A stretch of DNA of 64,000 bases, taken from the NCBI GenBank assembly GCA_964467515.1, contig CAYXQP010000001.1:1509-65508 (forward strand), in the 5' to 3' direction. Numbering within the stretch: position 1 is the first letter of the stretch; each line of letters starts with the position of its first letter. Below are positions 15,950 through 61,717 of this stretch, piece after piece. The notes beneath the pieces are model-generated. The model was not told the DNA's origin and made no database searches. It saw nothing but the letters and a program-made list of their open reading frames with translations. The DNA comes from an uncultured Eubacteriales bacterium (lineage in GTDB: Bacteria; Bacillota; Sulfobacillia; DYIH01; JBBIPI01). The position numbers and the translations under genes were made by a program.

Positions 15950-17896
15950 ATGCAGACCCGCAGGAAAGCCAACACCGTGACGGTTCGTTGGACGAGGCGG
16001 GAACTGGATCTTCCTGCCGACGAGCCCCTCCATCGCTCCCTGGCCGCCGCCGGTGTGCCCGTGGAAAGCCCCTGCGGCGGATTGGGCCGGTGCGGGCGCT
16101 GTCGCGTCCTGTTCCTGACGGGAGCGCCGGCTCCCTCCGAGGCCGACCGCCGCCTGCTGAGCGGTGCCGACCTGGAGGCCGGCTGGCGGCTGTCCTGCCG
16201 CCACCTGCCGCGCGCCGGGGCGGAGATCACCCTGACCCCCTCCTGGACGCCAGCGGCCCTCGCGGCAGCCGGGCCCGGCGGGGCCACCCTGCCGGCAGCC
16301 GTCAAGGGGGCCACGGAGGCGGGGGCCGTCACCGTGCGCTCGCCCCTGGTGGAGAGCCGCACCGTGGTCCTGCCGCGGCCGGCGGCGGAGGAGACGGGCG
16401 GCGACGTGGAGAGGCTGGCCGCCGCCCTGGGTCGGCCCCTCCGGGCGGGTCTCCCCGCCCTGAGGGAAGGCGCCCTCCACCTGCGGCGCGGCGGCGAACT
16501 CCGCTGCGTCCTCGGCGACGGCGAGCTCCTGGCCGTCGCAGGGGCTGCCGGAGCGGGGCAGGCCCTGGGTCTTTGCCTCGACCTGGGCACCACGACCCTG
16601 GCCGGCTACCTCCTGGCCCTGGACACCGGGCACCAGCTGGCGGGCGCCGCCATCCCCAATCCCCAGGCTTCTCTGGGCGCCGACATCATGACGCGCCTCG
16701 GCCACGCCCTGCGGGGAAACGGCCTGGCCGAGCTGCGCCTGCTCCTGGTGGAGGGGGCCAACCGCCTCCTGGAGAGCCTCTGCCGCCAGGCCGAGTCCGA
16801 ACCCGACGCGGTGTGGGCCGTCACGGCCGTCGGCAACAGCGCCATGCACCACCTCTTCCTGGGTCTCCCGGTGGACGGCCTGGCCGCGGCCCCCTATGCG
16901 CCCCTTTCCACGGCGCCCCGCCTGGAGAGGGCCGCCGACCTGGGGCTGGCGTGCCACCCGCGGGGTCTCGTCTACCTGCCGCCCCTCCTGGGCGGCTTCG
17001 CGGGGAGCGACATGGCCGCCGTGCTCCTGGCGACCCGCCCCTGGGAAGCCGAGCGGCCCGTCCTGGTCCTGGACCTGGGCACCAACGGCGAGGTGCTGCT
17101 GGGCCACGAGGGGCGAGTGCTCACCGCCAGCGCCCCGGCCGGACCGGCCTTCGAAGGGGCCGGGCTCTCGGCCGGCCTGAGAGCCGGGCCGGGCGCCATC
17201 ACGGCCGTGGACCTGGCGACGGTGGAGGGGGAGGTGGACCTGACGGTGGAGGTGGTCGGCGGCGGGCCGCCGCAGGGCATCTGCGGGTCGGGCGCCGTGG
17301 ACGCGGCGGCCGCCCTCCTGCGGGCCGGGCTGGTGGACGCCTCCGGCCGGATCGCCGTGGACCGGCTGTCCTCCCTTCCCGCCCGCCTGGCGGCGCGGAT
17401 CAGGCCGGAGGGAGCCGGCGCCGTGACCCTGGCCCACGGTCCCGGCGGACCCGTGCTGCTCACCCAGGGCGACCTGCGCCAGCTCCAGCTGGCCAAGGCG
17501 GCCGTGCGGGCGGCCTGCGACCTGCTCCTGGCCGAGGGAGGCCTGGAGCCGGACGACCTGGGGGCGGTCCTGCTGGCCGGCGCCTTCGGCAACTACCTTC
17601 GCCCGGAGAGCGCCCTCGCCATCGGGCTCCTGCCGCCGGTGCCTCCCGAGCGCGTCGTCCCGGTGGGCAACGCGGCGGGAGTGGGGGCGATGCTCTGCCT
17701 CCTGGACGGGCTGGCCCGGAGCGAGCTGGAGGAGCGGGCGCGGCGGGTCCGGCATGTGCCCCTGGCCACTCACCCCGACTTTCAGGACCGGTTCCTGGCC
17801 GCCACTTGGTTCCCGTCGCCGGGAGGTCCCCCGGCCCCGGCCGACCGGCCGGCCCGGCCCGCCGCGGCGGGAACAACCGGTTCCAAGGGGGGGTGA
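15950..17896 (+). CDS. 2Fe-2S ferredoxin plus ASKHA-ATPase protein of the RACo / DUF4445 family (corrinoid reductive activase-like)
   Basis: 648 aa. The N-terminal plant-type ferredoxin cysteines (CGGLGRCGRCRV...SCRH) are followed by an ASKHA-fold region (LCLDLGTTTLAGYLL...VLDLGTNGEV). Divergent from metF. Confidence 0.75.
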   Translation: MQTRRKANTVTVRWTRRELDLPADEPLHRSLAAAGVPVESPCGGLGRCGRCRVLFLTGAPAPSEADRRLLSGADLEAGWRLSCRHLPRAGAEITLTPSWTPAALAAAGPGGATLPAAVKGATEAGAVTVRSPLVESRTVVLPRPAAEETGGDVERLAAALGRPLRAGLPALREGALHLRRGGELRCVLGDGELLAVAGAAGAGQALGLCLDLGTTTLAGYLLALDTGHQLAGAAIPNPQASLGADIMTRLGHALRGNGLAELRLLLVEGANRLLESLCRQAESEPDAVWAVTAVGNSAMHHLFLGLPVDGLAAAPYAPLSTAPRLERAADLGLACHPRGLVYLPPLLGGFAGSDMAAVLLATRPWEAERPVLVLDLGTNGEVLLGHEGRVLTASAPAGPAFEGAGLSAGLRAGPGAITAVDLATVEGEVDLTVEVVGGGPPQGICGSGAVDAAAALLRAGLVDASGRIAVDRLSSLPARLAARIRPEGAGAVTLAHGPGGPVLLTQGDLRQLQLAKAAVRAACDLLLAEGGLEPDDLGAVLLAGAFGNYLRPESALAIGLLPPVPPERVVPVGNAAGVGAMLCLLDGLARSELEERARRVRHVPLATHPDFQDRFLAATWFPSPGGPPAPADRPARPAAAGTTGSKGG

Positions 17897-21234: not shown

Positions 21235-21978
21235 TCATCTCAGGTAGCGCATGGGGTTGACGGCGCGACCGCCCACCCTCACCTCGAAGTGGACGTGGGG
21301 TCCCGTGCAGCGGCCGGAGCAACCCATCAGGGCTATCAGCTCGCCGCGCTCCACCCGCTGGCCGGCGGAGACGAGGACCCGCGAGTTGTGCCCGTAGAGG
21401 GTCTCGCTGCCGTCCCCGTGGCGGATGACGACGACGCGCCCGTAACCGTAGTACCAGGCGGCCAAGGTGACGACACCCGGGGCCACGGCCCTCACCTCGC
21501 TGCCGTAGCGCCCGGCTATGTCCACCCCCCGGTGGAACTCCCCCCGCCGCCAGCCGTAACGGGACGATATGTAGCCCCGCGCCGGCCAGGGCACGGATCC
21601 CCCCAGGTCCGCCCGCGGCAGGGCACCGGCCGCGTCGACGCCGACCGCCGCCCGCGGACGCCCGCCGGCCGGCTGACGCCTGGCGGGCCTCGCCTCCTCG
21701 GGAGCCGGCACCTCCTCCGGGGAGAGAAACTGAGTCTCCTCGGGCGGGACGATGATGGCGTCGGCGTCGGGCAGAGGCTCCTCCTCTGGCTCGCCGGTGA
21801 GGCCGGGAGCCTCGGCGGCCGCGGCCGGGACGGCCGGAAGGGCAGCCAGGGACGCGCGCGCCAGGGGCCGCTCCGCCAGGAAGGAGAGTTGCTTCGGGAG
21901 AAAGGGGGCATCGTGGAACAGGACCGATACCATGAAGATCAACGATAGCCAGCGGCGGGGGCTCAGCCTGCCAGGCAA
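21235..21978 (-). CDS. M23 family metallopeptidase (LytM-type peptidoglycan endopeptidase)
   Basis: 247 aa with an N-terminal transmembrane segment, a low-complexity linker, and a C-terminal M23 catalytic core (HRGVDIAGRYGSEVRAVAPGVV...YGHNSRV...HVHFEV). Confidence 0.8.
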   Translation of the reverse strand: MPGRLSPRRWLSLIFMVSVLFHDAPFLPKQLSFLAERPLARASLAALPAVPAAAAEAPGLTGEPEEEPLPDADAIIVPPEETQFLSPEEVPAPEEARPARRQPAGGRPRAAVGVDAAGALPRADLGGSVPWPARGYISSRYGWRRGEFHRGVDIAGRYGSEVRAVAPGVVTLAAWYYGYGRVVVIRHGDGSETLYGHNSRVLVSAGQRVERGELIALMGCSGRCTGPHVHFEVRVGGRAVNPMRYLR

Positions 21979-22142
21979 GGAGCCACACTCCTTCTGGAAG
22001 CCTCCGGGGTTAGCTGACGGGTTCGGCAGAGAAGGTGAGCCTACCGCCTGGCGGCGGATTCACCCCACAACCTGGGTCCCCCGTACCCGCGGGTGATGGC
22101 CCACGGGATTCGGCTCTTTTTTTGGTGGGCCTGCCGGCCGTT

Positions 22143-22354: not shown

Positions 22355-22936
22355 TCAGCCGCGGGCCGCCAGCTGGCCCCGGTGGGCGAGCAGGTTTAGC
22401 CTCTTCACGCGGGCGTTGACCGTTTCCCAGTTCACGTTCTTCATGAAGCTCTCGATGTAGGCCTTGCGCGCCGTGCCGTAGTCGAGGAAGTAGGCGTGCT
22501 CGTAGACGTCCAGGATGAGGAGCGGCGACGCGTCCCACACCCCGTCCGAGTGGATATCCGACAGGTAGTTGTGGAGCCTGTGATCGGTCCAGTCGAAGGC
22601 CAGCACCACCCAGCCCCGCGCCGCTATGCCCAGCCCCTTGAACTCCTGCTCCCAGGCCTCATAGGAGCCGAAGTCCTCCTCGATGAGCCGGGCGATCTCG
22701 CCCTGGGGCCTGCCACCGCCGCCGCCCAGGTTTTCGAAGTAGGCCTCGTGCAGGCGGATGGCGTTGGTGGCGAAGACCTCCTCCCGCTTGAGCTCCCGGA
22801 TGAGACTGTAGGTGGCGTTGGCCTCCCCGGGGTTGGCCGTCTCCAGCTTGCTCTCGATCTCGTTGAGCTTGTTGACGTAACCCTTGTACAGAACGTCGTG
22901 GTGCTCGTCGATCTGCCTCTGGGTGAAACCCTCCAT
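22355..22936 (-). CDS. sodA: Fe/Mn-family superoxide dismutase (divergent or short N-terminus)
   Basis: ...QIDEHHDVLYKGYVNKL... corresponds to the HHxKHH region, and the C-terminal DVYEHAYFLDY is the Fe/Mn SOD metal-ligand motif. The ATG at 22936 is the likely start; the ORF extends in frame to 22972. Confidence 0.8.
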   Translation of the reverse strand: MEGFTQRQIDEHHDVLYKGYVNKLNEIESKLETANPGEANATYSLIRELKREEVFATNAIRLHEAYFENLGGGGGRPQGEIARLIEEDFGSYEAWEQEFKGLGIAARGWVVLAFDWTDHRLHNYLSDIHSDGVWDASPLLILDVYEHAYFLDYGTARKAYIESFMKNVNWETVNARVKRLNLLAHRGQLAARG

Positions 22937-23146
22937 GGCTCCCGGCTTGACCTCTCTTGCCTGCCTGGGCAACCCCCATCCCCCCTCCTCTTCCCGGCGG
23001 CCGTCCCGCCGCCTCGCGTCGGCGGGATTGTAGCATCCGCCGGCCGGCTAGTAAAGCTCTGACTTTCTAAACGATGCGGCCGCAAAAGGGCCGGTCCCGT
23101 CGCTCCCCTTGCCCGCCCGCCGGTGCCGGCACGGCGGCATGGCGGT

Positions 23147-24286
23147 CTAATAGCGCAACAGAGCGGCCACCTCGGGGACCTCGGCCGCCTGCTCCTCCCC
23201 GCGGGTGAAGGCTATCTCGGCCCCCTGCTCGCAGGCGGCGTCCACCAGGTACTGGGTCGCCTCCCGGGCCTGCCCCCTCGTCCCGCCCAGGCACCTGAGG
23301 CAGCGCCACGGCTCCCCCTCCGGCGTCACGAAGCCGCAGGCGCACTCGTAACCGCGGAGCCTGACGCCCGTGCGCAGGATCAACTGGCGCACGGCGCCGC
23401 GTTGGAGGGCCGCGCTCACGTCGTGAGGGCCCAGGGCGGCCTGCCCGCGGGCCGCCAGCTCCGCCGCCTGCCGCATCAACGCGGCTCCCCTCTCCTGGCG
23501 GTGCCGTGCCACCAGGTCCAGCACGATGGCCTCCATCTCGGCCGCGGACACGTCGGCGGCCGCGTCCACCTCGCCCAAAAGGCGCCTGGCCCAGTCCTGG
23601 GGCAGGGCCTGGCGGGCGAGGCTCCGCACCTCCGCCGGGCCGGCCAGGACGAGCCACTCGGCGGCGGCTCCGCCGGCCACGTCGGCCAGGGCCCCCACCG
23701 CCTGGCGCACATGGCGCCCCAGATGGTCCAGGATGTGGCGGTCTATCCGGCGCTCCTCCAGGTTGGCCCAGCCCCCTTCCCGCACGTTTTGCGGCACCTC
23801 GTTGCAGAAGCCGCCTCTCTCCACGAGGGCGCCGTCGTGGAGGTGGAGGAAGCGCGCCGTCTGGCGACCCACCGCCAGCACGAGGCCCGGCGGCAGCAAC
23901 CAGGACCGCTCCAGGAGGGGAAGCCGGTACGTGACGCGGTCGGCCACCGCCAGGGGCCGCACGTGGCCGTCCACGGGTAGGACCGACCAGAACCCGTCCG
24001 CCGCGCACGAGAAGAAGGCGGCTCCCTTGGCCGCAAAACCGCGCTGCGTCCGCAGCCAAGCGCCCATCCTCTCCACGTCCTCCCGCAGGGACTGGCGCGC
24101 CCGCCGCGGCAGCGACCCGCCGACCAGCGCCACCTCCTGGCCCAGGGTCCGGAACACGTTGAGATAACCGCGCGCCTGGTCACGGGCCCGATCCAGCGGC
24201 AGGTAGAGGCTCGTCACCAGCAATCCCTCGGGGGCACGGTACCGCTCCAGGGCCTCGAACTCCCCCATCTCCGCCACCACGGCCAT
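23147..24286 (-). CDS. eRF1/Dom34(Pelota)-like protein with a C-terminal Cys4 zinc ribbon (baeRF-type release-factor homologue); function unknown
   Basis: About 380 aa. The N-terminal ...GLLVTSLYLPLD... matches the first strand of the eRF1/Pelota N-domain, followed by a central domain and a C-terminal CACGFVTPEGEPWRCLRCLGG. The ATG at 24286 or 24268 is the likely start. Confidence 0.5.
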   Translation of the reverse strand: MAVVAEMGEFEALERYRAPEGLLVTSLYLPLDRARDQARGYLNVFRTLGQEVALVGGSLPRRARQSLREDVERMGAWLRTQRGFAAKGAAFFSCAADGFWSVLPVDGHVRPLAVADRVTYRLPLLERSWLLPPGLVLAVGRQTARFLHLHDGALVERGGFCNEVPQNVREGGWANLEERRIDRHILDHLGRHVRQAVGALADVAGGAAAEWLVLAGPAEVRSLARQALPQDWARRLLGEVDAAADVSAAEMEAIVLDLVARHRQERGAALMRQAAELAARGQAALGPHDVSAALQRGAVRQLILRTGVRLRGYECACGFVTPEGEPWRCLRCLGGTRGQAREATQYLVDAACEQGAEIAFTRGEEQAAEVPEVAALLRY

Positions 24287-24528
24287 CCCCCCTGCCCACC
24301 CTCCGCCGGCACGCAAGCGTACGCTGCCGAACCGCCACCCTTTCCGCCGGGAAAACATTCTCCCCCCGCGGACCGGTTTCCTCCCACCGGCCGGTCGGTT
24401 TCACCGCAGGGGGAAGGCGGTTGTCTCGCGCAGGCCGCGGGTCACCGGTCCTCGGTCCAAGTCCTGGCCGGGAAGGCCCCGCCGACCTGCGCTAAAATGG
24501 GCTGGACCGCCGGAGGAAGGAGGCCGCC

Positions 24529-27075
24529 GTGCCGTCTTTTCGCTCCCTGCTCGGCAAGCGGGTCCTGGTTTGGGACGGCGCCATGGGGACCATGCTCCAG
24601 GCGGCCGGCCTGCCCGCCGGCGGGTGCCCCGAGATCTGGAACCTGGAACGTCCCGACGCCGTCGCGGCCGTGCATCGCGCTTACGTGGAGGCCGGCGCCC
24701 TCATCCTGGAGACCAACACCTTCGGCGGCAACCGGATCAAGCTGGCTCACTACCGCCTGGCCCACCGCGTGCAGGAGATCAACGGCCGCGCCGTGGCCTT
24801 GGCCAGGGAGGCGGCGGGCGACAGGGCCCTGGTGGCGGCCTCCCTGGGCCCCACCGGCCTCTTCGTGGCCCCGCTGGGCGAGATGAGCTTCGAGGAGGCC
24901 TACGACGTCTTCGCCGAACAGGCGGCCGCCTGCGCCGCGGCCGGGGCCGATCTCTTCATCGTGGAGACCATGGCCGACCTGGGCGAGGCCAGGGCCGCCG
25001 TCCTGGCGGCTAGGGCGACCGGACTGCCGGTGGTGGCCCAGCTCACCTTCGCCGAGGGCGGGCGCACCTTCACCGGCACCGATCCCGAGACGGCGGTGCT
25101 GGTCCTCTCCTCGGCCGGGGCCGAAGTGGTGGGGGCCAACTGCTCCGTGGGCCCGGCCGAACTGGTGCAGGTGGTGCGGGCCATGGCGGCGGTGGGGCGG
25201 GTCCCCGTCAGCGTCCAGCCCAACGCCGGCCTGCCCCGGCTGGTGGGCGGCACGGAGACGGTCTTTCCCCTGGGACCGGAGGAGTTCGGCGCCTGGGGAC
25301 CGCGGCTGGTGGAGGCGGGCGCCAGCCTCGTGGGCGGCTGCTGCGGCACCGGACCCGAGCACATCCGCCGGCTGGCGCAGGCCGTCGCCGGCCTGACGCC
25401 TCCCTGGCCGGGCGCGCGGCACCCCGCGCTCACGGGTCTGGCCTCGCGCACCGGCACCTTCTGGTTTCGGGACGAACACCTCCCCCTCGTCATCGGCGAG
25501 CGCATCAACCCGACGGGCCGCAAGAAGCTCCAGGAGGACGTGGCCGAGGGGCGCTTCCTCCTGGTCCGTGAGGAAGCCCGCCGGCAGGCGGCGGCGGGCG
25601 CCCAGGCCCTGGACGTCAACGTGGGAGTGCCCGGCGTGGACGAGGCGGCCGCCATGCGCCGGGCCGTCCTGGCGGTGCAGGAGGCGGCCACCCTCCCCCT
25701 GTGCGTGGATTCCTCGACGCCGGCGGCCCTGGAGGCAGGACTGGCGGCCACCGTGGGGAAACCCCTGGTCAACTCGGCCTCGGGCGAGGCGGGCCGCCTC
25801 GAGGCGGTGCTGCCCCTGGCCCGTCGCTTCGGGGCCGCCCTCATCTTCCTGGCCCTGGACGACGACGGCATCCCCGCCACCGCCGCCGGGCGCCTGGCCG
25901 TGGCGGAGCGCCTGGTGCGGGCGGCGGAGGAGGCCGGGTTCCCCCGGGAGGACGTCTTCCTGGACTGCCTGGCCATGGCCGTGGGGGCCGACCAAGCCTC
26001 GGCCCTGGAGACCCTGCGGACCATCGGCCTGGTGAGGGAGCGGCTGGGCGTCCGCACCGTCCTCGGGCTCAGCAACATCTCCTTCGGCATGCCCAACCGG
26101 CCTCTCCTCAACGCCACCTTCCTGGCCATGGCCCTGGCCGCCGGGCTGGACGCCGTCATCATGAACCCCCTCGACCAGGCGGCCATGGACACGGTGCGGG
26201 CGGCGCGGGTCCTCCTGCGGCGGGACGCCGACGCGCGCCAGTACGTGGCGGTCATGGCGGCCCGCCCCGAGACGCCCCCGGCCGCGGCTCGGGTGGAGGC
26301 CGCGGCCGCGGAGCCGACCGCCGCGGCACCGGTCGAGGACCGGCCCCCGGCGGTTACCACCGCCGCGGGGGAGCCGGCCGAGGAGCGGCCCCCCGCGGGG
26401 GCGGAGCGGGATCCCCTCGACCAGGCCCTCTACCGGGCCGTCCTGGAGGGCAACCCGCAGGGCATCGTGCCCTTGGTGGAACAAGCCCTGGCCGCCGGCC
26501 GGGACCCCCTGGCCATGCTGAACGGCGTCCTCATCCCGGCCATCGAGGAGGTGGGCCGGCTCTTCGGCCAGGGCATCTACTTCCTGCCCCAGCTCATCCT
26601 CTCGGCCAACGCCATGAAGGCCGCCTTCGAGCGGCTCAAGCCCGAGCTGGCCCGGCGCCAGGCCGCCGAGCCGCTGGCCACCATCGTCCTAGCCACGGTG
26701 GAGGGGGACATCCACGACATCGGCAAGAACATCTGCGCCGTCCTCCTGGAGAACCACGGCTTCCGCGTGGTGGACCTGGGCCGGGACGTCCCCGCGGAGC
26801 GCATCCTGGAGGCCGCGCGCCGCGAGGGGGCGGACATCGTAGGCCTCTCCGCCCTCATGACCACCACCATGCCCCGCATGAAGGAGGTGGTGGATCTCTT
26901 CCGGCGCGAGGGGCTGGCCATCCCCGTCATCATCGGGGGTGCCGCCACCGACAAGGCCTTCGCCGAGGAGATCGGCGCCGCCGGCCACGGCGCCGACGCC
27001 GCCGAGGCGGTCCAGGTGGCGCGGCGCCTCCTCGGCCTCGTCTTTCCCGAGACCCGGACCGTGACCCCCTCCTAG
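24529..27075 (+). CDS. metH: Cobalamin-dependent methionine synthase MetH lacking the C-terminal AdoMet reactivation domain
   Basis: 848 aa made of a homocysteine S-methyltransferase domain, a pterin-binding domain, and a B12 cap plus B12-binding domain (DIHDIGKNI...GLSALMTTT). The GTG start follows GGAGGAAGGAGG. Confidence 0.9.
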   Translation: MPSFRSLLGKRVLVWDGAMGTMLQAAGLPAGGCPEIWNLERPDAVAAVHRAYVEAGALILETNTFGGNRIKLAHYRLAHRVQEINGRAVALAREAAGDRALVAASLGPTGLFVAPLGEMSFEEAYDVFAEQAAACAAAGADLFIVETMADLGEARAAVLAARATGLPVVAQLTFAEGGRTFTGTDPETAVLVLSSAGAEVVGANCSVGPAELVQVVRAMAAVGRVPVSVQPNAGLPRLVGGTETVFPLGPEEFGAWGPRLVEAGASLVGGCCGTGPEHIRRLAQAVAGLTPPWPGARHPALTGLASRTGTFWFRDEHLPLVIGERINPTGRKKLQEDVAEGRFLLVREEARRQAAAGAQALDVNVGVPGVDEAAAMRRAVLAVQEAATLPLCVDSSTPAALEAGLAATVGKPLVNSASGEAGRLEAVLPLARRFGAALIFLALDDDGIPATAAGRLAVAERLVRAAEEAGFPREDVFLDCLAMAVGADQASALETLRTIGLVRERLGVRTVLGLSNISFGMPNRPLLNATFLAMALAAGLDAVIMNPLDQAAMDTVRAARVLLRRDADARQYVAVMAARPETPPAAARVEAAAAEPTAAAPVEDRPPAVTTAAGEPAEERPPAGAERDPLDQALYRAVLEGNPQGIVPLVEQALAAGRDPLAMLNGVLIPAIEEVGRLFGQGIYFLPQLILSANAMKAAFERLKPELARRQAAEPLATIVLATVEGDIHDIGKNICAVLLENHGFRVVDLGRDVPAERILEAARREGADIVGLSALMTTTMPRMKEVVDLFRREGLAIPVIIGGAATDKAFAEEIGAAGHGADAAEAVQVARRLLGLVFPETRTVTPS

Positions 27076-34528: not shown

Positions 34529-35506
34529 TTGGACCCGAGGCTGCAGGAGACAGCGGCAAGGGTGCTGGCCGGAGGCGAGGTCTCGGGTGAGGAGGCTCTC
34601 CACCTCCTCCAGCTCGAGGGACCCGACGTGTACCATCTCCTGGCCTGGGCCAACGAGATCCGCGAGCGCTTCACCGGTGACAGGGTGGAGCTCTGTTCCA
34701 TCGTCAACGCCCGCTCCGGCAATTGCAGCGAGGACTGCGCCTTCTGCGCCCAGTCCTCCCGCCACGCCGCGGACGCCCCCGTCCACGGGCTGCTGGACGA
34801 GGAAACGATCCTGGCCAAGGCCAGGGCCATGGAGGCCGCGGGCGCCCGGCGCTTCGACCTGGTCACGGCCGGGTACGGCTTCACCGAGGACGACCCGGAC
34901 TTCAGGCGGATCCTGGCCATCTACCGCCGGCTGCGGCGGGAGACGGGGCTCGAGCTGTGCGCCTGTCTCGGCATCCTCACCCCCGGCGCCGCCCGCGCCC
35001 TGGTGGAGGCGGGCGTGACGCGATACAACCACAACCTGGAGACGGCCCGTTCCTTCTTCTCCCGCATCTGCACCACCCACTCCTACGACGAGCGGGTGGC
35101 CACCGTGCAAGCCGTCAAGTCCGCCGGCATGGAGGTCTGCTGCGGCGGCATCATCGGCCTGGGGGAGACACGGGAGCAGCGCGTGGAGCTGGCCCTCACC
35201 CTGAGGGAGCTGGACGTGGACTCGGTGCCCATCAACATCCTGGTCCCCCGCCCGGGCACGCCCCTGGCCCATGTCCCTCCCCTGGCGCCGGAGGAGATCC
35301 TCAAGACCTTCGCCATGTTCCGGTTCGTGCTGCCGGACAAGCTCATCAGGTACGCGGCGGGGCGCGAGGGTGCGCTGGGTCCGCTGCAACCCCTCGGCTT
35401 CCTGGCGGGGGTGAACGCCATGCTGGTGGGCGGGTACCTGACGGTGCCGGGGCGGGAGGTGGAGGCGGACGTGGCCATGGTGGCGTCCCTGGGTCTCCAA
35501 TGGTGA
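34529..35506 (+). CDS. bioB: Biotin synthase BioB (radical SAM)
   Basis: 325 aa with CSEDCAFCAQS (a CxxxCxxC motif) and the BioB fold. The TTG start follows GCGGGGTG. Confidence 0.85.
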   Translation: MDPRLQETAARVLAGGEVSGEEALHLLQLEGPDVYHLLAWANEIRERFTGDRVELCSIVNARSGNCSEDCAFCAQSSRHAADAPVHGLLDEETILAKARAMEAAGARRFDLVTAGYGFTEDDPDFRRILAIYRRLRRETGLELCACLGILTPGAARALVEAGVTRYNHNLETARSFFSRICTTHSYDERVATVQAVKSAGMEVCCGGIIGLGETREQRVELALTLRELDVDSVPINILVPRPGTPLAHVPPLAPEEILKTFAMFRFVLPDKLIRYAAGREGALGPLQPLGFLAGVNAMLVGGYLTVPGREVEADVAMVASLGLQW

Positions 35507-36090
35507 CCCGCACAGGCACGCCGGGACGCCGGCGCCGGCGCCGCAGCCCGGCCGGCGTGTACGCGGCCGCCCTGGTGCTGGTGCTGGCGGCGGCGGCCGC
35601 CGCCTACCTGGCTCGACCCGGCACGCGGCAGCCGGCGGAGGCGGCGGCGCCGGCCTTCACGCTGCCCGACACCGAGGGGCGGCAGGTGTCGTTGGCGTCG
35701 CTCCGGGGCAAGCCCGTGGTGCTGGTGTTCTTCCGCACCTTCGGGTGAGGGGTTTGCCAGCAGCAGCTCGTGGAGCTGCAGGACGTCTATCCGGAGATAA
35801 GGCGGGCCGGGGGAGAGCTGCTGGCCATCAGCGTCCGTCCCCTGGACGAGAACAGGGCAGGGCGGGCCACCCTGGGCCTCCAGTACCCCGTTCTGTCGGA
35901 CGAGACGACGGACGTGGCCACGTCCTACGGCGTGTTCAACCTCCTGGGCGACGAACTGGCCGCCCCCGCCGTCTTCGTCGTGGACCGGCGGGGGCAGATC
36001 GCCTGGCGCTACGTGGGCAGGAGCGTCGCCGACCGGCCGCAGGCGGCCGCCGTCCTCCGCCGGCTACGGGCTGCCGCCCGGCCGGGGTAG
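35500..36090 (+). CDS. Exported thioredoxin-fold thiol-disulfide oxidoreductase (TlpA/ResA/peroxiredoxin-like) with an in-frame TGA at the redox motif; candidate selenoprotein (UxxC)
   Basis: The ATG at 35500 overlaps the bioB stop (ATGGTGA). The N-terminus has an Arg-rich stretch and a hydrophobic anchor. The frame reads ...KPVVLVFFRTFG-[TGA 35746..35748]-GVCQQQLVELQDVYPEI... and continues in the same frame as ORF 35770..36090 to a TAG at 36088, about 196 codons in all. Confidence 0.6.
35763..35779 (+). other. Hairpin 15 nt downstream of the in-frame UGA: candidate bacterial selenocysteine insertion (SECIS) element
   Basis: A perfect 7-bp stem GCAGCUC/GAGCUGC closed by a GUG apical loop. 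It sits at the position expected for a bacterial selenocysteine insertion element relative to the UGA. Confidence 0.4.
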
Positions 36091-42200: not shown

Positions 42201-42341
42201 TCAACCTCTGCGCGCAGCCCGCTCCAGGTCGCCGAGCCTGTCCTCCACCGCCTTCTGGCGGCGCTGCAGGTTCATGACGAAGAGGATGAGTCCCACCCAG
42301 ATGATGCTGTAGCCGATGAACATCCAGACCTCCGGCTTCAC
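42201..42341 (-). CDS. ccmD: Heme exporter protein CcmD (small single-TM protein)
   Basis: 46 aa, VKPEVWMFIGYSIIWVGLILFVMNLQRRQKAVEDRLGDLERAARRG. The GTG start overlaps the ccmC stop (GTGA). Confidence 0.5.
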   Translation of the reverse strand: MKPEVWMFIGYSIIWVGLILFVMNLQRRQKAVEDRLGDLERAARRG

Positions 42342-43009
42342 CGCCGTCCCTCCTCCCTGAGATGCTCCCGCCAGGCTTCCACCCGCCAGCGCAGGTCCTC
42401 GGTCCGCAGGCGCCAGCGGAGGATGTAGACATACAGTAACGTGAAGGTCAGGACCGCCACACCCATGGCCGCCCCCATCAGGGGCTCCATGTCCATCTTG
42501 CCGATGCGGACCACCTCCGGGTGCAGCCCCCGCCACCAGCGCACCGACATGTGGATGATGGGCACGTCGAAGAAACCGAGGATGCCCAGGGCGGCGGCCA
42601 GCCGGGCCCGGCGTTCGTCCCCCTCGGCCGTGGCCCGCAGATACAGGTAGCCGATGTAGATGAGCCAGAGGACAAGGGTGGCCGTCAGCCGGGGGTCCCA
42701 GGTCCACCAGGTGCCCCACACGGCCCGCGCCCAGGTGGCTCCCGAGAGGAGCGCCATGCTGGTGAAGAAGACGCCCAGCTCCGCCGAGGAGTAGGCCAGC
42801 CGGTCGTAGCGCCGCTCGTTGGTCCGCAGATAGAGGATGCTGGCCACGAACACCACCAGGAAGCTCAGGTAGGCGTTCCAGGCCGAGGCCACGTGGAAGT
42901 AGAAGATCCGCTGCGGTGGTCCCATGGTGTGCTCCTCCGGAGCCACGAGGAGGCCCATGGCCAGCGCCACCGGACCCATCACCGCCAGGAGCCATCCGAG
43001 AGCCGTCAT
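42338..43009 (-). CDS. ccmC: Heme exporter protein CcmC
   Basis: 223 aa; ...WGTWWTWDPRLTATLVLW... is the CcmC tryptophan-rich motif. Confidence 0.85.
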   Translation of the reverse strand: MTALGWLLAVMGPVALAMGLLVAPEEHTMGPPQRIFYFHVASAWNAYLSFLVVFVASILYLRTNERRYDRLAYSSAELGVFFTSMALLSGATWARAVWGTWWTWDPRLTATLVLWLIYIGYLYLRATAEGDERRARLAAALGILGFFDVPIIHMSVRWWRGLHPEVVRIGKMDMEPLMGAAMGVAVLTFTLLYVYILRWRLRTEDLRWRVEAWREHLREEGRR

Positions 43010-43025
43010 GCACCCATCCCTCCCG

Positions 43026-43706
43026 TCAGCCTTCGAAGAGATAATCGAACAACACGAAGGGCAGAGCCACGAAGATGAGGTCGTACGCCCCCAGGAAGGC
43101 GAAACCCGCCAGGGCGCCGGCCCCGTCGCCGGCCAGAGCGGCCTCCGTGGCCCGCACGCTGGCGATGATGACGGGGGCCAGGAGGGGAAAGAGGAGGAGG
43201 GGGAGCAGCACCTCGCTGGCCCGCGTCCCGCCCGCCAGCACGCTGACGAAGGTCCCCACCGCCGTGAAGCCCACGGTGCCGAGGAGCAAGGCCGCCGCCA
43301 GGAGGGGCAGGCTGCCCCGCCACGGCTCGCCGAGGAAGACGAAGAAGAGGGGCGTGAGGACCACCTCCATCCCCAGCATGAAGAGGACGTTGCTGAGGCA
43401 CTTGCCGAGGAAGAGGGTGCTCCTGTCCACCGGCGTGAGGAGGAGCCCCTGGAAGGCGGCGTTGTACCGCTCCATGGCGAAGGAACGGTTGAGGCCCAGG
43501 GAACCGCCGAAAAAATAGGCGATCCACATGATGCCGGCGAATATGGGCCCGAGGTCGTGCTCCGCCGGGTTGAAGGCGAAGCTGAAGATGACCAGGATCA
43601 TGAAGGCGAAGAGGAGGAGCGAGAAGAGCATCTCCCGGGCGCGCAGCTCCACGACGAGGTCCTTCCAGACCAGGGTCAGCACGGGTCCCATCAGGCTTCC
43701 TCCCAC
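43026..43706 (-). CDS. ccmB: Heme exporter permease CcmB
   Basis: 226 aa with six transmembrane segments in the CcmB family. An internal ATG at 43691 would give a TGATG overlap with the ccmA stop. Confidence 0.8.
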   Translation of the reverse strand: MGGSLMGPVLTLVWKDLVVELRAREMLFSLLLFAFMILVIFSFAFNPAEHDLGPIFAGIMWIAYFFGGSLGLNRSFAMERYNAAFQGLLLTPVDRSTLFLGKCLSNVLFMLGMEVVLTPLFFVFLGEPWRGSLPLLAAALLLGTVGFTAVGTFVSVLAGGTRASEVLLPLLLFPLLAPVIIASVRATEAALAGDGAGALAGFAFLGAYDLIFVALPFVLFDYLFEG

Positions 43707-44422
43707 GGCGCCGCAGCCGCGGCCGGCGCACCCACGGCTTCCTCGTAGAGGGCGGCCAACTCCGCGGCGCCCCTGCCCCGGACCGGCACATGACAGGCGA
43801 CAGACCCCCGGTGGAGGACGGCGAAGGCGTCGGCCACCTGAGCGCTGGCCTCGAAGTCGTGGGAGACCAGGAGACAGGTCCCGCCCTCCGCCCGGAAACG
43901 GCCCAGCAGCTCCACCAGGAGAGCCTGCCCGTCCCGGTCCAGCCCCGTGAAAGGCTCGTCCAGCAGCAGCACGCGCGGCCGCTGCACCAGGGCCCGGGCG
44001 ATGGCCAGCCGCTGCTGCATGCCGCGGGAGAAGGTGCCCACCGGGTCACGTGCATAGGGCTCGAGGCCGACGGCCGCCAGGAGCTCGTCCACCCGCCTGC
44101 CCGCATCGGTAACACCGTACAGGCCGGCGTAGAAACGCAGGTTCTCCGCCGCCGTCAGGTAGTCGTAGAGAAAGGTCTGGTGCGCCACCACGCCCAGGCA
44201 GCGCCTCACCTCCGCCTCCCGGCCGCGGAGGGGACGATCCTGCCAGAGCAGTTGCCCCGACGACGGCCGCTGCAGGAGGGCCAGGATGCGCAGGAGGGTG
44301 CTCTTGCCCGCGCCGTTGGGACCGTGCAGGGCCAGAACCCGCCCCGGCACCAGGTCCAGGTCCACCCCCCGCAGAACCTCCCGCAGGCCGTGCCTCTTGG
44401 TGACGCCTCGCGCCGCCAGCAC
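43691..44422 (-). CDS. ccmA: Heme exporter ATP-binding protein CcmA (ABC ATPase)
   Basis: Walker A (GPNGAGKST), the signature motif (SRGMQQRLAIARAL) and Walker B (LLLDEP). The start is likely GTG at about 44422, because the ORF otherwise overlaps ccmF. Confidence 0.8.
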   Translation of the reverse strand: MLAARGVTKRHGLREVLRGVDLDLVPGRVLALHGPNGAGKSTLLRILALLQRPSSGQLLWQDRPLRGREAEVRRCLGVVAHQTFLYDYLTAAENLRFYAGLYGVTDAGRRVDELLAAVGLEPYARDPVGTFSRGMQQRLAIARALVQRPRVLLLDEPFTGLDRDGQALLVELLGRFRAEGGTCLLVSHDFEASAQVADAFAVLHRGSVACHVPVRGRGAAELAALYEEAVGAPAAAAAPWEEA

Positions 44423-44435
44423 TCCGGGCCTCTCG

Positions 44436-46619
44436 TCAGCCGCCGACAGACGGAGACCGGCGCCTGCGCCGTCCCTCGCCGCCGCCCTCTCGCCCGCGTC
44501 CGCCACCCTCTGCGCCACCGTCCGCCTGCGCCGCCGGGCTTCGCTGCTGGACAGCGACCCGCTCCAACTCGCCCCGCAGCTCCGCGTACGCGTCGGGGTC
44601 CAATTTGCCCGACCGGTAGTCCACCTCCAGCTCCGCCAGCCGGCGCAGGGCCGCCTCCGCGCGCCCCGCCGGCACCGCTCTGGTGAAGGCGATGGTCCAG
44701 AGGGTGCCGAATATGATCAGGTAGAAACCGATCCAGACCCAGGCCACACCGGGATTCCACCAGCTCTTGAAGGTGGCGGCGGCCCCGGCCGCCTCCCAGC
44801 CCACCAGGATGATGTACAGGTCGCCCGCCAGGGTGCCCATGATGGCGGCCTCGGTGGACGGCCCCATCTGCTCGTAGCCGGGATAGAAGCGGCGCTCGGG
44901 CTTGAGCGTGGTCACGTAGCGACCGTCCTTCTCCACGTTCATGAGAGCGTAAACGGAACCCACGTTGCCGGGGAGGACATCCTCCATCAATCCCTGATAG
45001 GTGACCCGATAGCCGTAGAGGTCGAAGGACTGGCCCACCCGCAGTCCGGGCGTCTCCAGCACCTGCTGGAAAAACTGGGAGGCCACGATGCCGAAGGCCA
45101 TGACCACCACGCCCACGTGCACCGAATAGCCGCCGTAGCGCCGGGGGTTCTTGAGGAAGAGCCGTCCCAGACCCCGCACGAAAGATTCCCCCGTGAGGCG
45201 GGCCCTGGCGCGCCCCGCCACCCAGAACTCCCGCAAGGCCACCGCCAGGGCGAACAGGGCCACCGCGTCACCCAGCACGGCACCGGCCCTGCGCATCCCC
45301 AAGAGCACCAGCGTCACCGCCATGGCTGCGCCCAAGGCCAGCGGCACGGCGCCGAGGCGGGCCAGCCGGCCCGCCGCGGCCCGCCGCCACCCGAGCAGGG
45401 GGCAGACCCCCATGAGGGCGAGGAGGGCCACGAAGAGGGGTCCGCCCACGCGGTTGAAGTAGGGGGCGCCCACGGTCACGTCCTGGCCCGCCAGCCTGGT
45501 GATGAGCGGATAGGTGGTGCCCAGCAGCACCACCAGGGTGATGCCCACCAGGATCAGATTGTTGACGAGGAAGCTCGTCTCCTTGGACCAGGTGGACTCC
45601 AGGGAGCCGCCCTCGGCCACCACGTCGTACCGGTCGAAGACCAGGTACAGGGAGCCGGCCATGACGAGGCCGATGAAGCCCATGAACCACGGCCCGATGG
45701 GCGACTGGGCGAAGGCGTGGACCGAGTTGAGGATGCCGCTCCGGGTGACGAAGGTGCCGAAGACCACCAGCACGAAGGTGAAGATGATGAGGAGGATGTT
45801 CCAGTTCTTCAACAGGCCGCGGCGCTCCTCCACCATGGCCGAGTGGAAGAAGGCCGTGGCCACCAGCCACGGCATGAAGGAGGAATTCTCCACCGGGTCC
45901 CAGCCCCAGTAGCCGCCCCAGCCCAGCTCGTGGTAAGCCCACCAGCCGCCCACCACGATGCCGGCCGTGAGGAAGAGCCAGGCCACCATGGTCCACCGCC
46001 GCGTGATGCGGAGCCAGTCGGTGCCGCGGTGGCGGTTGAGAAGGGTGGAGATGCCGAAGGCGTAGGGCACCGTCATGCCCACGAAGCCGGTGTAGAGGAG
46101 AAGCGGGTGCCCCATCATGCCCGGGTCCTGGAGCAGAGGCGTCATGCCGCGGCCGTCGGGCGGGGCCGGGAACTGCTGGCGGAAGGGATCGGCTATGAAC
46201 CCGACGATGAGGGAGAAGAAGGCGGAGATGAAGGCGAGCACCGCCAGGGCGTGGGGAAGGAGCTGACCGGCCTCCCGCTCCCACAGGTAGGCCACCAGGG
46301 CGGTGTAGATGGTCAGCATCCAGAGCCAGAGGAGCAGGGATCCCTCCTGGGACGACCAGAAGGCACTGATCTTGTACATGGTGGGCTGGTCGATACGGCT
46401 CGTGGCCTCCACGTAGGCAACGCTGAAGTCATTGGTCAGCAGGGCGTAGAAGAGGGCGACGGCGGCCAGGCTGACGAGGCCGAGCAGGAGGAGGAGCCCC
46501 CGCCTACCGGCGCGGACCAGACCCGCGTCGCGCCGGTGGCCCCCCAGGGCCAGCAGCGCCACGCAGACCAGGGAAACGAAAAAGGCGAGGACGAGGCTCG
46601 CGTGTCCCAGCTTGGGCAT
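44436..46619 (-). CDS. ccmF: Cytochrome c-type biogenesis protein CcmF (heme lyase), with a C-terminal extension
   Basis: 727 aa with multiple transmembrane segments, a WWD-type tryptophan-rich region (...WAYHELGWGGYWGWDPVENSS...) and conserved histidines. Confidence 0.85.
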   Translation of the reverse strand: MPKLGHASLVLAFFVSLVCVALLALGGHRRDAGLVRAGRRGLLLLLGLVSLAAVALFYALLTNDFSVAYVEATSRIDQPTMYKISAFWSSQEGSLLLWLWMLTIYTALVAYLWEREAGQLLPHALAVLAFISAFFSLIVGFIADPFRQQFPAPPDGRGMTPLLQDPGMMGHPLLLYTGFVGMTVPYAFGISTLLNRHRGTDWLRITRRWTMVAWLFLTAGIVVGGWWAYHELGWGGYWGWDPVENSSFMPWLVATAFFHSAMVEERRGLLKNWNILLIIFTFVLVVFGTFVTRSGILNSVHAFAQSPIGPWFMGFIGLVMAGSLYLVFDRYDVVAEGGSLESTWSKETSFLVNNLILVGITLVVLLGTTYPLITRLAGQDVTVGAPYFNRVGGPLFVALLALMGVCPLLGWRRAAAGRLARLGAVPLALGAAMAVTLVLLGMRRAGAVLGDAVALFALAVALREFWVAGRARARLTGESFVRGLGRLFLKNPRRYGGYSVHVGVVVMAFGIVASQFFQQVLETPGLRVGQSFDLYGYRVTYQGLMEDVLPGNVGSVYALMNVEKDGRYVTTLKPERRFYPGYEQMGPSTEAAIMGTLAGDLYIILVGWEAAGAAATFKSWWNPGVAWVWIGFYLIIFGTLWTIAFTRAVPAGRAEAALRRLAELEVDYRSGKLDPDAYAELRGELERVAVQQRSPAAQADGGAEGGGRGREGGGEGRRRRRSPSVGG

Positions 46620-46622
46620 GGG

Positions 46623-47066
46623 CTACGACCTCTTCCCCTCGGACCCGGAGCCCTTTTGCGTCTCGATGTAACGCGACGGGCACTTGACGAGGAGCTGCCG
46701 GGCCTGGAACACGCCGTTTTCATCCACCCTGCCCCCCGCCACCACCTCGATGCCCCTGCCGGTGGAGGGCTGCACCTCGTCCGTCAGGGTATCGGGCTTG
46801 GCCCCGTGGTGGAAGACCTGGATGGTCCTGCCCCCGTCCTCCAGGGTGAAGCGCACGTCCAGGGCCATGGGGTCGTAGCGGAGGCTGCCCGGGACCACGT
46901 AGCCCTTGACCTGCACGTACTTGTCCCCCAGCTCTCCCTTTTTGGACAGATATTCGTCCACCGTGTAGTAGAAGGTGGCGTTGGGTCTCAGGTTGAGCCC
47001 CGCCAGGGCCAGGATGGCGCCCAGCACCGCCACGGTCGCCAGGGTTATCTTGGTGCTCCTGCTCAT
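46623..47066 (-). CDS. ccmE: Cytochrome c-type biogenesis heme chaperone CcmE
   Basis: Starting at the ATG at 47066 (MSRSTKITLATVAVLG...), a single transmembrane segment is followed by the CcmE OB-fold (VKGYVVPGSL...FTLEDGG). The start follows GGGAGG. Confidence 0.8.
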   Translation of the reverse strand: MSRSTKITLATVAVLGAILALAGLNLRPNATFYYTVDEYLSKKGELGDKYVQVKGYVVPGSLRYDPMALDVRFTLEDGGRTIQVFHHGAKPDTLTDEVQPSTGRGIEVVAGGRVDENGVFQARQLLVKCPSRYIETQKGSGSEGKRS

Positions 47067-47216
47067 GTGCACGACCTCCCGGTTGGAACAGTGCCAGTCA
47101 CAATCGCATTTATCGTAGCAGCCGCGCCGGCACATCGCATCAGAAGGGCATAAGAATTGAAAGCCGCACCGAACCAAAGGACACGTGGCGACGCGGCACC
47201 GGGGCGGCGGCGCGCG

Positions 47217-47615
47217 TCAGACCACGCGGACGGGTTCCTCTTCGACCCGGCCGTCGCGGATGAGAAAGGCTCGGAGGACGGGCCGGTCGGGCACGGCCAG
47301 GGACAGGATCAGATAGCGGGCATCGGGATAGTGGGCCTGGGCCACGTCGGTGGCGGAGGGATAGGCCTCGGTCCGCGGATGGGAGTGGAAGACGGCCACC
47401 AGCTCCTCTCCCGCCTCCTCGGCCGCCCTGAGGTGGCGGAGAAGCTGCGCGGGCGGGATGCGGTATCTCACCTCGGGCCGGGGGTCCTCGTTATCGGTGG
47501 GCACGAAGCGCTCCGGCCGGCCCCCGTTGCCCAGGAGGAGGCCGCACGCCTCCCGGGGAGCCTGGGAACGAGCATGGGCCACCAGCGCCTCGTAGACGGT
47601 CCGGGAAATCTTCAC
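47217..47615 (-). CDS. JAMM/MPN+ metalloprotease (Mec+-type; candidate CysO C-terminal processing peptidase)
   Basis: The JAMM motif EACGLLLG ... HSHPRTEAYPSATD (E, HxH, S, D). The GTG start at 47615 overlaps the cysM stop (GTGA). Confidence 0.75.
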   Translation of the reverse strand: MKISRTVYEALVAHARSQAPREACGLLLGNGGRPERFVPTDNEDPRPEVRYRIPPAQLLRHLRAAEEAGEELVAVFHSHPRTEAYPSATDVAQAHYPDARYLILSLAVPDRPVLRAFLIRDGRVEEEPVRVV

Positions 47616-48583
47616 CGCCCGTCGCCCTCCATCATGCTGAGGTACCGCTCGCCCGTGTCGGGCAGGATGGCCACCACCGTGCGGCCGACGCCCAGCCGCT
47701 CCGCCACCCGCAGGGCGGCCCAGACGGCGGCGCCGCTGGAGAAGCCGCACAGGATGCCCTCCTCGCGGGCCAGGCGCCGCGCCGTGGCGATGGCGTCCTC
47801 GTCCCGCACGGCCACCACCTCGTCATAGACGGACCGGTCCAGGACGCCCGGCACGAAGCCCGCCCCCAGGCCCTGGATGCGCGTGAAGCCCGGCCGACCG
47901 CCGGAGAGGACCGCCGACCGCGCCGGCTCCACGGCCACCACGCGCACCCCCGGAACCTCCTCCCGGAGCACCCGGCCCACCCCCGTGAGGGTCCCGCCCG
48001 TGCCTACCCCGGCGACGAAGGCATCCAGGTGGCCGCCCGTGTCCGCCAGAATCTCGCGGGCTGTCGTCTCGCGGTGGACGGCCGGGTTGGCGGGGTTCTC
48101 GAACTGGCGGGGCAGAAAGTAGCCGTGCCGGCCCGCCAGCTCCCGGGCGGCGTAGACGGCTCCCGTCATGCCCTCGATGGCCGGCGTCAGGACGAGCTCC
48201 GCGCCCAGCCACTGGAAGAGGCGGCGGCGCTCCACGCTCATGTCCTCGGGCATGGTGAGGATGAGCCTGTACCCGCGGGCGGCCGCCACCACGGCGAGCC
48301 CTATCCCCGTGTTGCCGCTGGTGGCCTCCACGACGGTATCGCCCGGGCGGAGTAGCCCCTCCCGCTCGGCGGCCTCGATCATGGAGAGGGCGATCCGGTC
48401 TTTCACGCTCCCGCCGGGATTGCGGGACTCCAGTTTGCCCAGCACATGGGCGCAGCCGGGAGGAACGACGCGCCGGAGCCGAACCAGGGGGGTGCGACCG
48501 ATGGTGGCCAGGACGTCGGGCGCCACTCCGGGCCAAGGGGGCAGGTCGCCGTCCCCCGGCTGGGGTGCCATCTCGGGCGCCAT
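47612..48583 (-). CDS. cysM: Cysteine synthase (CysM/CysK; PLP-dependent)
   Basis: ...SVKDRIAL...TSGNTGIGLA...GVGTGGTL... are the PLP-fold cysteine synthase motifs. Confidence 0.85.
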   Translation of the reverse strand: MAPEMAPQPGDGDLPPWPGVAPDVLATIGRTPLVRLRRVVPPGCAHVLGKLESRNPGGSVKDRIALSMIEAAEREGLLRPGDTVVEATSGNTGIGLAVVAAARGYRLILTMPEDMSVERRRLFQWLGAELVLTPAIEGMTGAVYAARELAGRHGYFLPRQFENPANPAVHRETTAREILADTGGHLDAFVAGVGTGGTLTGVGRVLREEVPGVRVVAVEPARSAVLSGGRPGFTRIQGLGAGFVPGVLDRSVYDEVVAVRDEDAIATARRLAREEGILCGFSSGAAVWAALRVAERLGVGRTVVAILPDTGERYLSMMEGDGR

Positions 48584-48587
48584 GGGC

Positions 48588-48878
48588 CTAGCGCCGCCCG
48601 CCGGCGCCGCCCGCCATGGCGGGGATGAAAGCCACCTCGTCTCCGTCCCGCAGGGCCGTGTCCACGCCCTGCAGGCCCCTGATCTCCTCCTGGTTCACGA
48701 AGACATTGATGTACTCGGCCACCTGGCCCCGCTCATCCAGGATCTGCCGAGCGAGCTGCGGGTAGCTCTCGGCCAGGCGGCGCAGCAGCTCGGCCACCGT
48801 GCCCGCCTCCACGGCCAGGCGCGCCTGACCGTCCGTGTGGCGCCGGAAGGGCGTAGGTACGTACACGTTGACAGTCAC
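48588..48878 (-). CDS. cysO: ThiS/MoaD-family sulfur-carrier protein (CysO-like), with a short C-terminal extension after Gly-Gly
   Basis: 96 aa, MTVNVYVPTPFRRH...GDEVAFIPAMAGG-AGGRR. The GG is followed by five residues, which fits a pro-form trimmed by the adjacent JAMM protease. It sits immediately upstream of cysM. Confidence 0.7.
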   Translation of the reverse strand: MTVNVYVPTPFRRHTDGQARLAVEAGTVAELLRRLAESYPQLARQILDERGQVAEYINVFVNQEEIRGLQGVDTALRDGDEVAFIPAMAGGAGGRR

Positions 48879-61506: not shown

Positions 61507-61717
61507 GAGCAATCCCCCTGAGGCAGCGTACGCCACGCCCTTGGAGGCGCCGTGGAGGCGGTGTGGGGATTCTGTGAAGCGCGCGGCGGGGCCGGCGCTC
61601 CGGGGTCCGGCCGCCACCAAGGGCCGGCCGAAGCCGGAAGCCGGGCCGCCAGCATCCGGCCGTGACAAACGGGCGCCCGTCCCCGCGCGATAGGATGGTC
61701 GAGAAGGGGGTGGGGCC

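Follow-up and report, generated by a model that had tools for sequence, protein, structure and literature searches.

A conserved in-frame UGA in a bioB-linked redoxin gene of uncultured bacteria predicts a membrane-anchored, peroxiredoxin-like UxxC selenoprotein

Known UxxC redoxins and the bioB-linked gene

Redoxins with a selenocysteine (Sec, U) in a UxxC motif on the AhpC/TSA scaffold have been a recognised and abundant family of predicted selenoproteins since 2004-2008. The family 'Prx-like thiol:disulfide oxidoreductase, PF00578, UxxC' (Prx, peroxiredoxin) is tabled as a high-confidence prediction (PMC13188914, Table 1); it occurs in Geobacter, Syntrophus and Desulfotalea, with a distant form in Syntrophomonas (PMC1794560). 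From Global Ocean Sampling (GOS) data, 225 Sec sequences of 'Prx-like 1' were obtained, and selenoprotein L was described as a Prx-like selenoprotein (PMC2398784). Here we analysed a 64 kb stretch of DNA from an uncultured bacterium (contig CAYXQP010000001.1; the whole stretch is called the window below), in which a redoxin gene located at 35500..36090 on the plus strand, next to bioB, is interrupted by an in-frame TGA at the first position of its redox motif. We conclude, with a probability of about 0.88, that this is a single selenoprotein gene, misannotated, with Sec at the active site of its product.

The gene shares with the Prx-like UxxC and UxxU selenoproteins the AhpC/TSA domain, a candidate Sec as first residue of UxxC where peroxiredoxins have Thr, Cys homologues that are widespread, and a hairpin resembling a Sec insertion sequence (SECIS) directly downstream, within the coding region. 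Unlike them, the proteins of the window clade carry an N-terminal membrane anchor. The described family members are from Deltaproteobacteria and marine bacteria, whereas the host of the window belongs to a high-G+C, spore-forming, apparently respiratory lineage labelled Clostridiales. The placement in this family, for which WP_010940744.1 is listed as representative, was based on PF00578 and on the occurrence of UxxC at the TxxC position.

The best sequence and structure matches were AhpE and the archaeal BCP/PrxQ proteins (PDB 1XXU, 4X0X, 3HJP and 2YWN), with 36% identity and a root-mean-square deviation (rmsd) of approximately 1.6 Å over 148 residues; these have TxxC where the window protein has UxxC, and in the window protein Pro, Thr and Arg are replaced and a membrane anchor is added. 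Like ResA, TlpA and CcmG (DsbE), the window protein, if its predicted topology is right, would be a membrane-anchored, outward-facing thioredoxin fold with a dithiol-type motif before helix alpha1 and, by alignment, a Pro opposite. It differs from ResA, TlpA and the WAxxUGC proteins in its motif, FGUGVC instead of W-C/U-x-x-C, and in a scaffold nearer to the peroxiredoxins. The resemblance to the WAxxUGC group is seen in fragments P0028-P0034, which are 65-75% identical to the N-terminal beta-hairpin segment of the window protein, APAFTLPD.EGRQVSLASLRGK.

These fragments are database proteins of 70-71 amino acids ending in ...FYWATW, evidently the N-terminal pieces of TlpA-like WAxxUGC selenoproteins truncated at the Sec codon; the Joint Genome Institute (JGI) gave two of them the name 'cytochrome oxidase Cu insertion factor (SCO1/SenC/PrrC family)'. 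They came from the search that also returned the N-terminal fragments of L030 and L031 described below, and are broken off at the corresponding place, which agrees with a Sec reading of the TGA in the window gene.

The window gene leaves unchanged what is known of Sec decoding or of redoxin selenoproteins, and would extend the Prx-like UxxC family to a membrane-anchored form.

A single reading frame with a conserved in-frame TGA

The region 35500..36090 is one reading frame running from the ATG at 35500 to the TAG at 36088-36090 (196 codons including the predicted Sec83), and its sole interruption is the TGA at 35746-35748. The translation across this codon reads ...KPVVLVFFRTFG*GVCQQQLVELQ.... 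In the list of open reading frames (ORFs) the gene is broken into a part ending at 35748 and a 106-amino-acid ORF at 35770..36090, whose GTG "start" at 35770 is the loop triplet of the downstream hairpin. The suggestion of the first-pass annotation, made from the letters alone, that the ORF table had split one frame at a single TGA was thus borne out by the reading frame and its translation. The TGA is codon 83, at the first position of the putative redox motif U83-G-V-C86 (35746..35757), which was located by HMMER alignments to AhpE and to a Sulfolobus Prx-like protein. The upstream gene bioB (34529..35506, plus strand) is a context gene outside the mechanism proposed below.

TGA terminates 28 of the 41 genes of the window, among them bioB, 240 nt upstream from the in-frame TGA. 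The codon is therefore an ordinary stop in this DNA, which excludes a genome-wide reassignment and indicates a standard code.

Since the data are wholly metagenomic, a sequencing or assembly error, such as a misread TGC or TGG, had to be considered. The independent Logan assembly SRR11582147 is identical to the window at 3465 of 3466 nt and has the same TGA; the single-nucleotide polymorphism (SNP) between the two is located elsewhere, at 36956, inside sucD. The codon is also TGA in three other samples. The probability of an error is accordingly close to nil, and the TGA can be taken as genuine.

Five orthologues were compared, all of them in the gene order bioB-redoxin-sucD. The closest relative of the window copy is L001, from a metagenome-assembled genome (MAG) titled 'Clostridiales bacterium', with 92.5% nucleotide identity; at the site of the TGA it has the Cys codon TGT (L001 1011-1013), and its full-length product (P0001) is 91% identical to the read-through product of the window gene. 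The third orthologue, L018, lies on a 121-kb metagenome contig which is 80-85% identical to the window and syntenic over 20.5 kb, and has TGA. The other two, L030 (Logan SRR11582149) and L031 (Logan SRR27730023), are more diverged from the window and have TGA as well; they were retrieved in a search with the 82-amino-acid N-terminal fragment, which returned proteins ending exactly in ...FFRTFG.

Gene callers give two fragments, an N-terminal one of 82-93 amino acids ending in ...FFRTFG and a downstream ORF of 106 amino acids, in every assembly carrying the TGA form. From these split calls we conclude that the gene represents an unrecognised selenoprotein of a small clade of uncultured bacteria, which no current NCBIfam model captures.

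In the homologue alignment the position of the TGA is occupied by Cys in P0003, P0005, P0021 and P0022. Together with the TGT of L001, this confirms the earlier proposal that the TGA aligns with the first Cys of CxxC. Among distant homologues the motif is CxxC in P0003 and P0005, SxxC in P0002 and SxxS in P0004. No TGA was found at the redox motif in the distant AhpC/TSA loci L009-L029. The distant homologues are located in another gene context, that of a thioredoxin gene followed by a leucyl aminopeptidase gene.

The frame runs on to a conserved stop in every orthologue bearing the TGA. Downstream from this codon the ratio of nonsynonymous to synonymous substitution rates (dN/dS) was 0.13-0.24 for all pairs. 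Between the window and L018, both of which have TGA, 36 of 56 differences were synonymous, compared with 27.6% expected under neutrality (p = 1.1e-8). The part 3' of the TGA is under purifying selection and therefore is translated, in this frame. Relatives with a true stop and a lost downstream part had been set beforehand as a test of the selenoprotein prediction, and the opposite was seen: in three further diverged orthologues the TGA is kept and the sequence after it is under purifying selection, and the sister L001 carries Cys.

These data also bear on the possibility that the gene is a pseudogene, a redoxin killed by a nonsense mutation from TGY to TGA. The site codon does differ from that of the intact Cys orthologue L001 by one base. 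However, four lineages share this TGA, the frame beyond it is free of other stops and of frameshifts, and in an ancestral pseudogene dN/dS should have drifted towards 1 instead of the low values obtained. We regard this explanation as very unlikely.

The tree obtained from synonymous divergence (dS) was (L030,((window,L001),(L018,L031))). On this tree the distribution of codons needs one change from Sec to Cys, the alternative being three or four independent gains. The simplest history would be an ancestral TGA, presumably read as Sec, in a small clade, followed by one TGA-to-TGT change in L001. TGT is a rare Cys codon in the window (15 TGT against 127 TGC), which fits a recent origin of the L001 codon from TGA. 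The replacement in L001 is apparently recent, the 17-nt hairpin described below having been kept unchanged, and this would make it a clean case of Sec-to-Cys replacement between species 92% identical in DNA, with the SECIS-like hairpin still present.

Two scans of the window for in-frame TGA codons with a coding signature on both sides yielded no other selenoprotein gene, returning only adjacent genes in the same frame. Candidates such as CheY/CheB, FtsA/FtsZ and Mdh/fumarase were rejected as merely neighbouring genes sharing a frame.

The SECIS-like hairpin and the case for Sec insertion

A hairpin, GCAGCUC-GUG-GAGCUGC, with a perfect stem of 7 bp and a loop of 3 nt, is located at 35763..35779. 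The stem begins 14 nt and the loop 21 nt after the UGA. The 17-mer was calculated to fold with -10.1 kcal/mol (z = -3.6), and none of 200 shuffled sequences folded as well; larger folds around it were unexceptional (z = -0.4 to -0.7). The published bacterial SECIS consensus comprises an apical loop of 3-9 nt, a stem of 4-16 bp, a G within the first two positions of the loop, in many cases with G or U next to it, a distance of 16-37 nt from UGA to loop and a free energy of at most -7.5 kcal/mol (PMC13188914). The hairpin agrees with it in full: loop of 3 nt (GUG, a G then a U), stem of 7 bp, spacing of 21 nt and -10.1 kcal/mol. The perfect 7-bp hairpin at SECIS spacing, first noticed by inspection of the letters, is therefore real, folds and fits the consensus.

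Taken alone, the hairpin goes only modestly beyond chance and is suggestive rather than decisive, because approximately 2% of positions have one: in this window of 72.6% G+C, 1.8-2.2% of positions are followed at 16-37 nt by a perfect stem of at least 7 bp with a loop of 3-9 nt and a G in the first two loop positions.

Conservation of the hairpin was marked. The five orthologues agree at each of its 17 nt, in a gene in which 61% of third codon positions vary, and the hairpin is retained in their consensus fold. It lies in a block of suppressed synonymous variation (35728..35781) which extends from six codons before the UGA through the hairpin. Within the 16 codons flanking the site codon, the sole third-position difference among the five orthologues is GTT/GTC. 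Nowhere else in the gene do third positions stay invariant for as long as over the hairpin (8 codons). The six codons preceding the UGA do not vary either, and third-position variation restarts directly 3' of the stem. In the SxxC homologue L002 the peptide QQQLVELQ is specified by different codons and the hairpin is lacking, which shows that the hairpin is not forced by the protein sequence.

A lower-stem extension of the hairpin, seen in the window, was unsupported in the other orthologues and was discarded.

Several observations weigh against the assignment of a SECIS element and of Sec insertion. The hairpin never varies among the five orthologues and thus gives no covariation support. It is intact in L001 too, which has Cys. 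Part of the palindrome would arise in any case from encoding QLVELQ with high-G+C codons. Its loop is of the minimal 3 nt, and a bulge is absent. No SECIS family was found by Rfam, either in a search of the whole window at gathering thresholds or in a permissive search of 35700-35860, which gave only matches at chance level (E > 5). All sequences behind the comparison are metagenomes or MAGs, and the evidence is at the DNA level. Finally, no selA, selB, selD or tRNA-Sec gene was found within the 64 kb window and the relative loci of 1-29 kb. The absence of Sec-machinery genes from the window had been noted before, and the same outcome was obtained here: SelA, SelB and SelD domains were absent among approximately 30 Pfam-annotated ORFs and among six further ORF translations read by eye, and no tRNA was detected in the window or in eight related loci.

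Gene callers emit two ORFs, and the UGA could be read through without Sec, by a near-cognate tRNA for Trp or Cys, or the locus could produce an 82-amino-acid anchor and a separate 106-amino-acid piece from the GTG at 35770. Neither redox residue would be present in a fragment beginning at this GTG. Between the UGA and the GTG, the amino acids of all seven codons are kept, with a single synonymous change. The GTG itself forms the hairpin loop and lacks a Shine-Dalgarno site ahead of it. As to read-through without Sec, an inefficient codon at a catalytic position would be expected to yield quickly to a sense codon, whereas the UGA has persisted at dS up to 0.9. Both variants together appear improbable, and Sec insertion remains the preferred explanation of the conserved UGA.

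In the mechanism proposed for Sec insertion, the ribosome would meet the UGA at codon 83 while SelB-GTP, carrying Sec-tRNA(Sec), is bound to the hairpin with the GUG loop, 14 nt downstream; Sec would be inserted and translation would proceed to the TAG at 36088.

Active site, topology and possible role

The product was analysed with Cys in place of the TGA. Pfam searches of the read-through product identified AhpC-TSA (1.6e-30) and Redoxin (7.7e-24), the PF00578 (AhpC/TSA) score being 106 bits against a gathering cut-off of 26. The AlphaFold model of the 195-amino-acid query (mean predicted local distance difference test score, pLDDT, 89.7; 93-98 across the domain) shows an N-terminal helix followed by a thioredoxin-like fold. 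In this fold helix alpha1 spans residues 84-101, and the TGA residue precedes it by two residues. Among solved structures, the nearest are the peroxiredoxins Sulfolobus Bcp4 and Mycobacterium tuberculosis AhpE, the latter with 36% identity and an rmsd of 1.5-1.6 Å.

In the HMMER alignment, FFPLAFTGIC of AhpE stands against FFRTFGUGVC. Pro38 of AhpE is replaced by Arg, Thr42 corresponds to the TGA residue (Sec83), and Cys45, at the position of the peroxidatic Cys, is conserved as Cys86. The position of AhpE Arg116 (...ANRGTFVVD) is taken by Pro156 (35965..35967), in AAPAVFVVD. One of the four catalytic residues of the peroxiredoxins is thus kept (Cys86), and the window protein has neither the peroxiredoxin motif PxxxTxxC(U) nor the conserved Arg. 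Judging from the alignments, Pro156 corresponds to the cis-Pro of thiol-disulfide oxidoreductases. In alignment A1, Pro at the Arg116 position always occurred with CxxC or UxxC, and Arg with the T/SxxC peroxiredoxins. By these residue alignments, the protein combines the scaffold of a peroxiredoxin with a two-residue redox centre of the thioredoxin type. With Pro, Thr and Arg lost, the expected activity is that of a thiol-disulfide (selenenylsulfide) oxidoreductase rather than a peroxidase.

It could nevertheless be a genuine selenoprotein of another function, a thiol or selenol peroxidase that detoxifies peroxides on the outer side of the membrane and does not reduce protein disulfides. The peroxiredoxins as nearest structures, AhpC-TSA as best Pfam match and C86 at the position of the peroxidatic Cys are in agreement with this, as are the superoxide dismutase and respiratory genes of the window, which suggest exposure to oxygen. 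The exchange of three of the four catalytic residues (Pro to Arg, Thr to Sec, Arg116 to Pro) and the pairing of the Pro variant with CxxC-type proteins in alignment A1 argue in the opposite direction, and the known Sec peroxiredoxins have TxxU, not UxxC (PMC13188914). A peroxidase is therefore the less likely of the two functions and, in our estimate, an unlikely one; disulfide reduction is the function favoured by the residues of the active site.

The first-pass annotation described the product as a TlpA/ResA-like redoxin. The redoxin part of this description, an AhpC/TSA-Redoxin domain of thioredoxin fold, was upheld; the TlpA/ResA affinity has to be refined, the scaffold being nearest to AhpE/BCP and the scores falling below all ResA, TlpA and DsbE cut-offs. 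No NCBIfam model reached its curated cut-off. The best match, in two stretches, was the SelL-related redox protein NF040769, a family of Prx-like fold, with half the cut-off score (60.9 bits against 120). The other scores, with cut-offs, were 57/170 for ResA, 17/230 for TlpA, 16/123 for DsbE, 24.5/210 for StoA, 37/300 for WAxxUGC_long and 24/270 for PrxU.

The N-terminus comprises an Arg-rich tail and a predicted transmembrane helix, A18-L37 (35551..35610), modelled by AlphaFold at residues 17-36 of the query; this bears out the membrane anchor proposed earlier. The hydrophobic stretch is conserved in all orthologues and the tails before it differ, those of L018, L030 (10001) and L031 (195) being longer and Lys/Arg-rich. 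By the positive-inside rule, the signal anchor probably places the redoxin domain outside the cytoplasm.

Translational coupling to bioB, also proposed from the window alone, would be confined to part of the clade. An ATGGTGA overlap of the redoxin start with the bioB stop codon (TGA, 35504-35506) is seen in the window and L001 only, and the arrangement is not conserved across the clade: in L018 (9851-9941) a separate Shine-Dalgarno site serves the redoxin gene, whose ATG is approximately 85 nt after bioB. The syntenic gene at the bioB position in L030 encodes Radical_SAM and BATS domains.

Taken together, these features suggest the following mode of action. The Arg-rich tail would remain in the cytoplasm and a single transmembrane helix would hold the peroxiredoxin-scaffold domain, probably at the outer face of the cytoplasmic membrane. 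In the active site, U83-G-V-C86 would directly precede and open helix alpha1, facing Pro156. The nucleophile attacking a substrate disulfide would be Sec83, and resolution of the mixed intermediate by C86 would give a Se-S bond (selenenylsulfide), which may be re-reduced by a membrane electron shuttle of the CcdA/DsbD kind.

A System I cytochrome c maturation cluster was found 6-11 kb downstream of the redoxin gene, with genes for CcmE, F, A, B and C and a small CcmD-like ORF (42201-47177 of the window, minus strand; 16601-20279 of L030). Neither ccmG nor ccmH was found within or beside this cluster, in the window or in L030. The selenoprotein might then be the missing CcmG/ResA-type reductant of this system. 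We consider this role tentative and on balance doubtful, because the linkage may merely reflect the close relatedness of the genomes. The host belongs to a lineage of high-G+C, spore-forming Firmicutes that is apparently exposed to oxygen. The Sec form, predicted in four species, and the Cys form of L001 with its intact SECIS-like hairpin would make a natural pair for gauging the benefit of selenium in a redox relay outside the cytoplasm.

The window also contains a Rieske protein gene (60964-61719, minus strand) adjoining a cytochrome b-like membrane ORF (59035 to approximately 59700, minus strand, identified by eye), a gene for a CopA-type P-type ATPase (55057-57594, minus strand), preceded by an unannotated ORF of 78 amino acids (57686-57922), and a superoxide dismutase gene (22355-22972). 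These genes suggest an oxygen-exposed respiratory lifestyle, unlike the anaerobic settings to which the most frequent use of Sec is ascribed (PMC1794560). The host lineage, labelled Clostridiales, also encodes SpoIIGA, at 1655-2584.

A gene at 23147-24358 (minus strand) codes for a 403-amino-acid protein matching Pfam baeRF_family10 (2.3e-13), a bacterial homologue of archaeo-eukaryotic release factor 1; no link of this protein to UGA recoding was found. A cyclic di-AMP (c-di-AMP) riboswitch (Rfam RF00379, 90.7 bits) is located at 21983-22125 (minus strand), directly upstream of an M23-family peptidase gene (21235-21978, minus strand).

Genes related to corrinoids and one-carbon metabolism are an ORF resembling methylenetetrahydrofolate reductase (MTHFR; 14957 to approximately 15900, minus strand, identified by eye), a RACo-type reductive activator of corrinoid proteins (15950-17896, plus strand) and a MetH-type methionine synthase (24529-27075, plus strand). 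At 47217-48878 (minus strand) a ThiS-like gene (48588-48878), a gene for a pyridoxal phosphate (PLP)-dependent CysM/CysK-like enzyme (47612-48583) and an ORF with a JAMM motif (47217-47750, identified by eye) form a set which resembles the CysO-CysM-Mec genes of sulfur-carrier cysteine synthesis.

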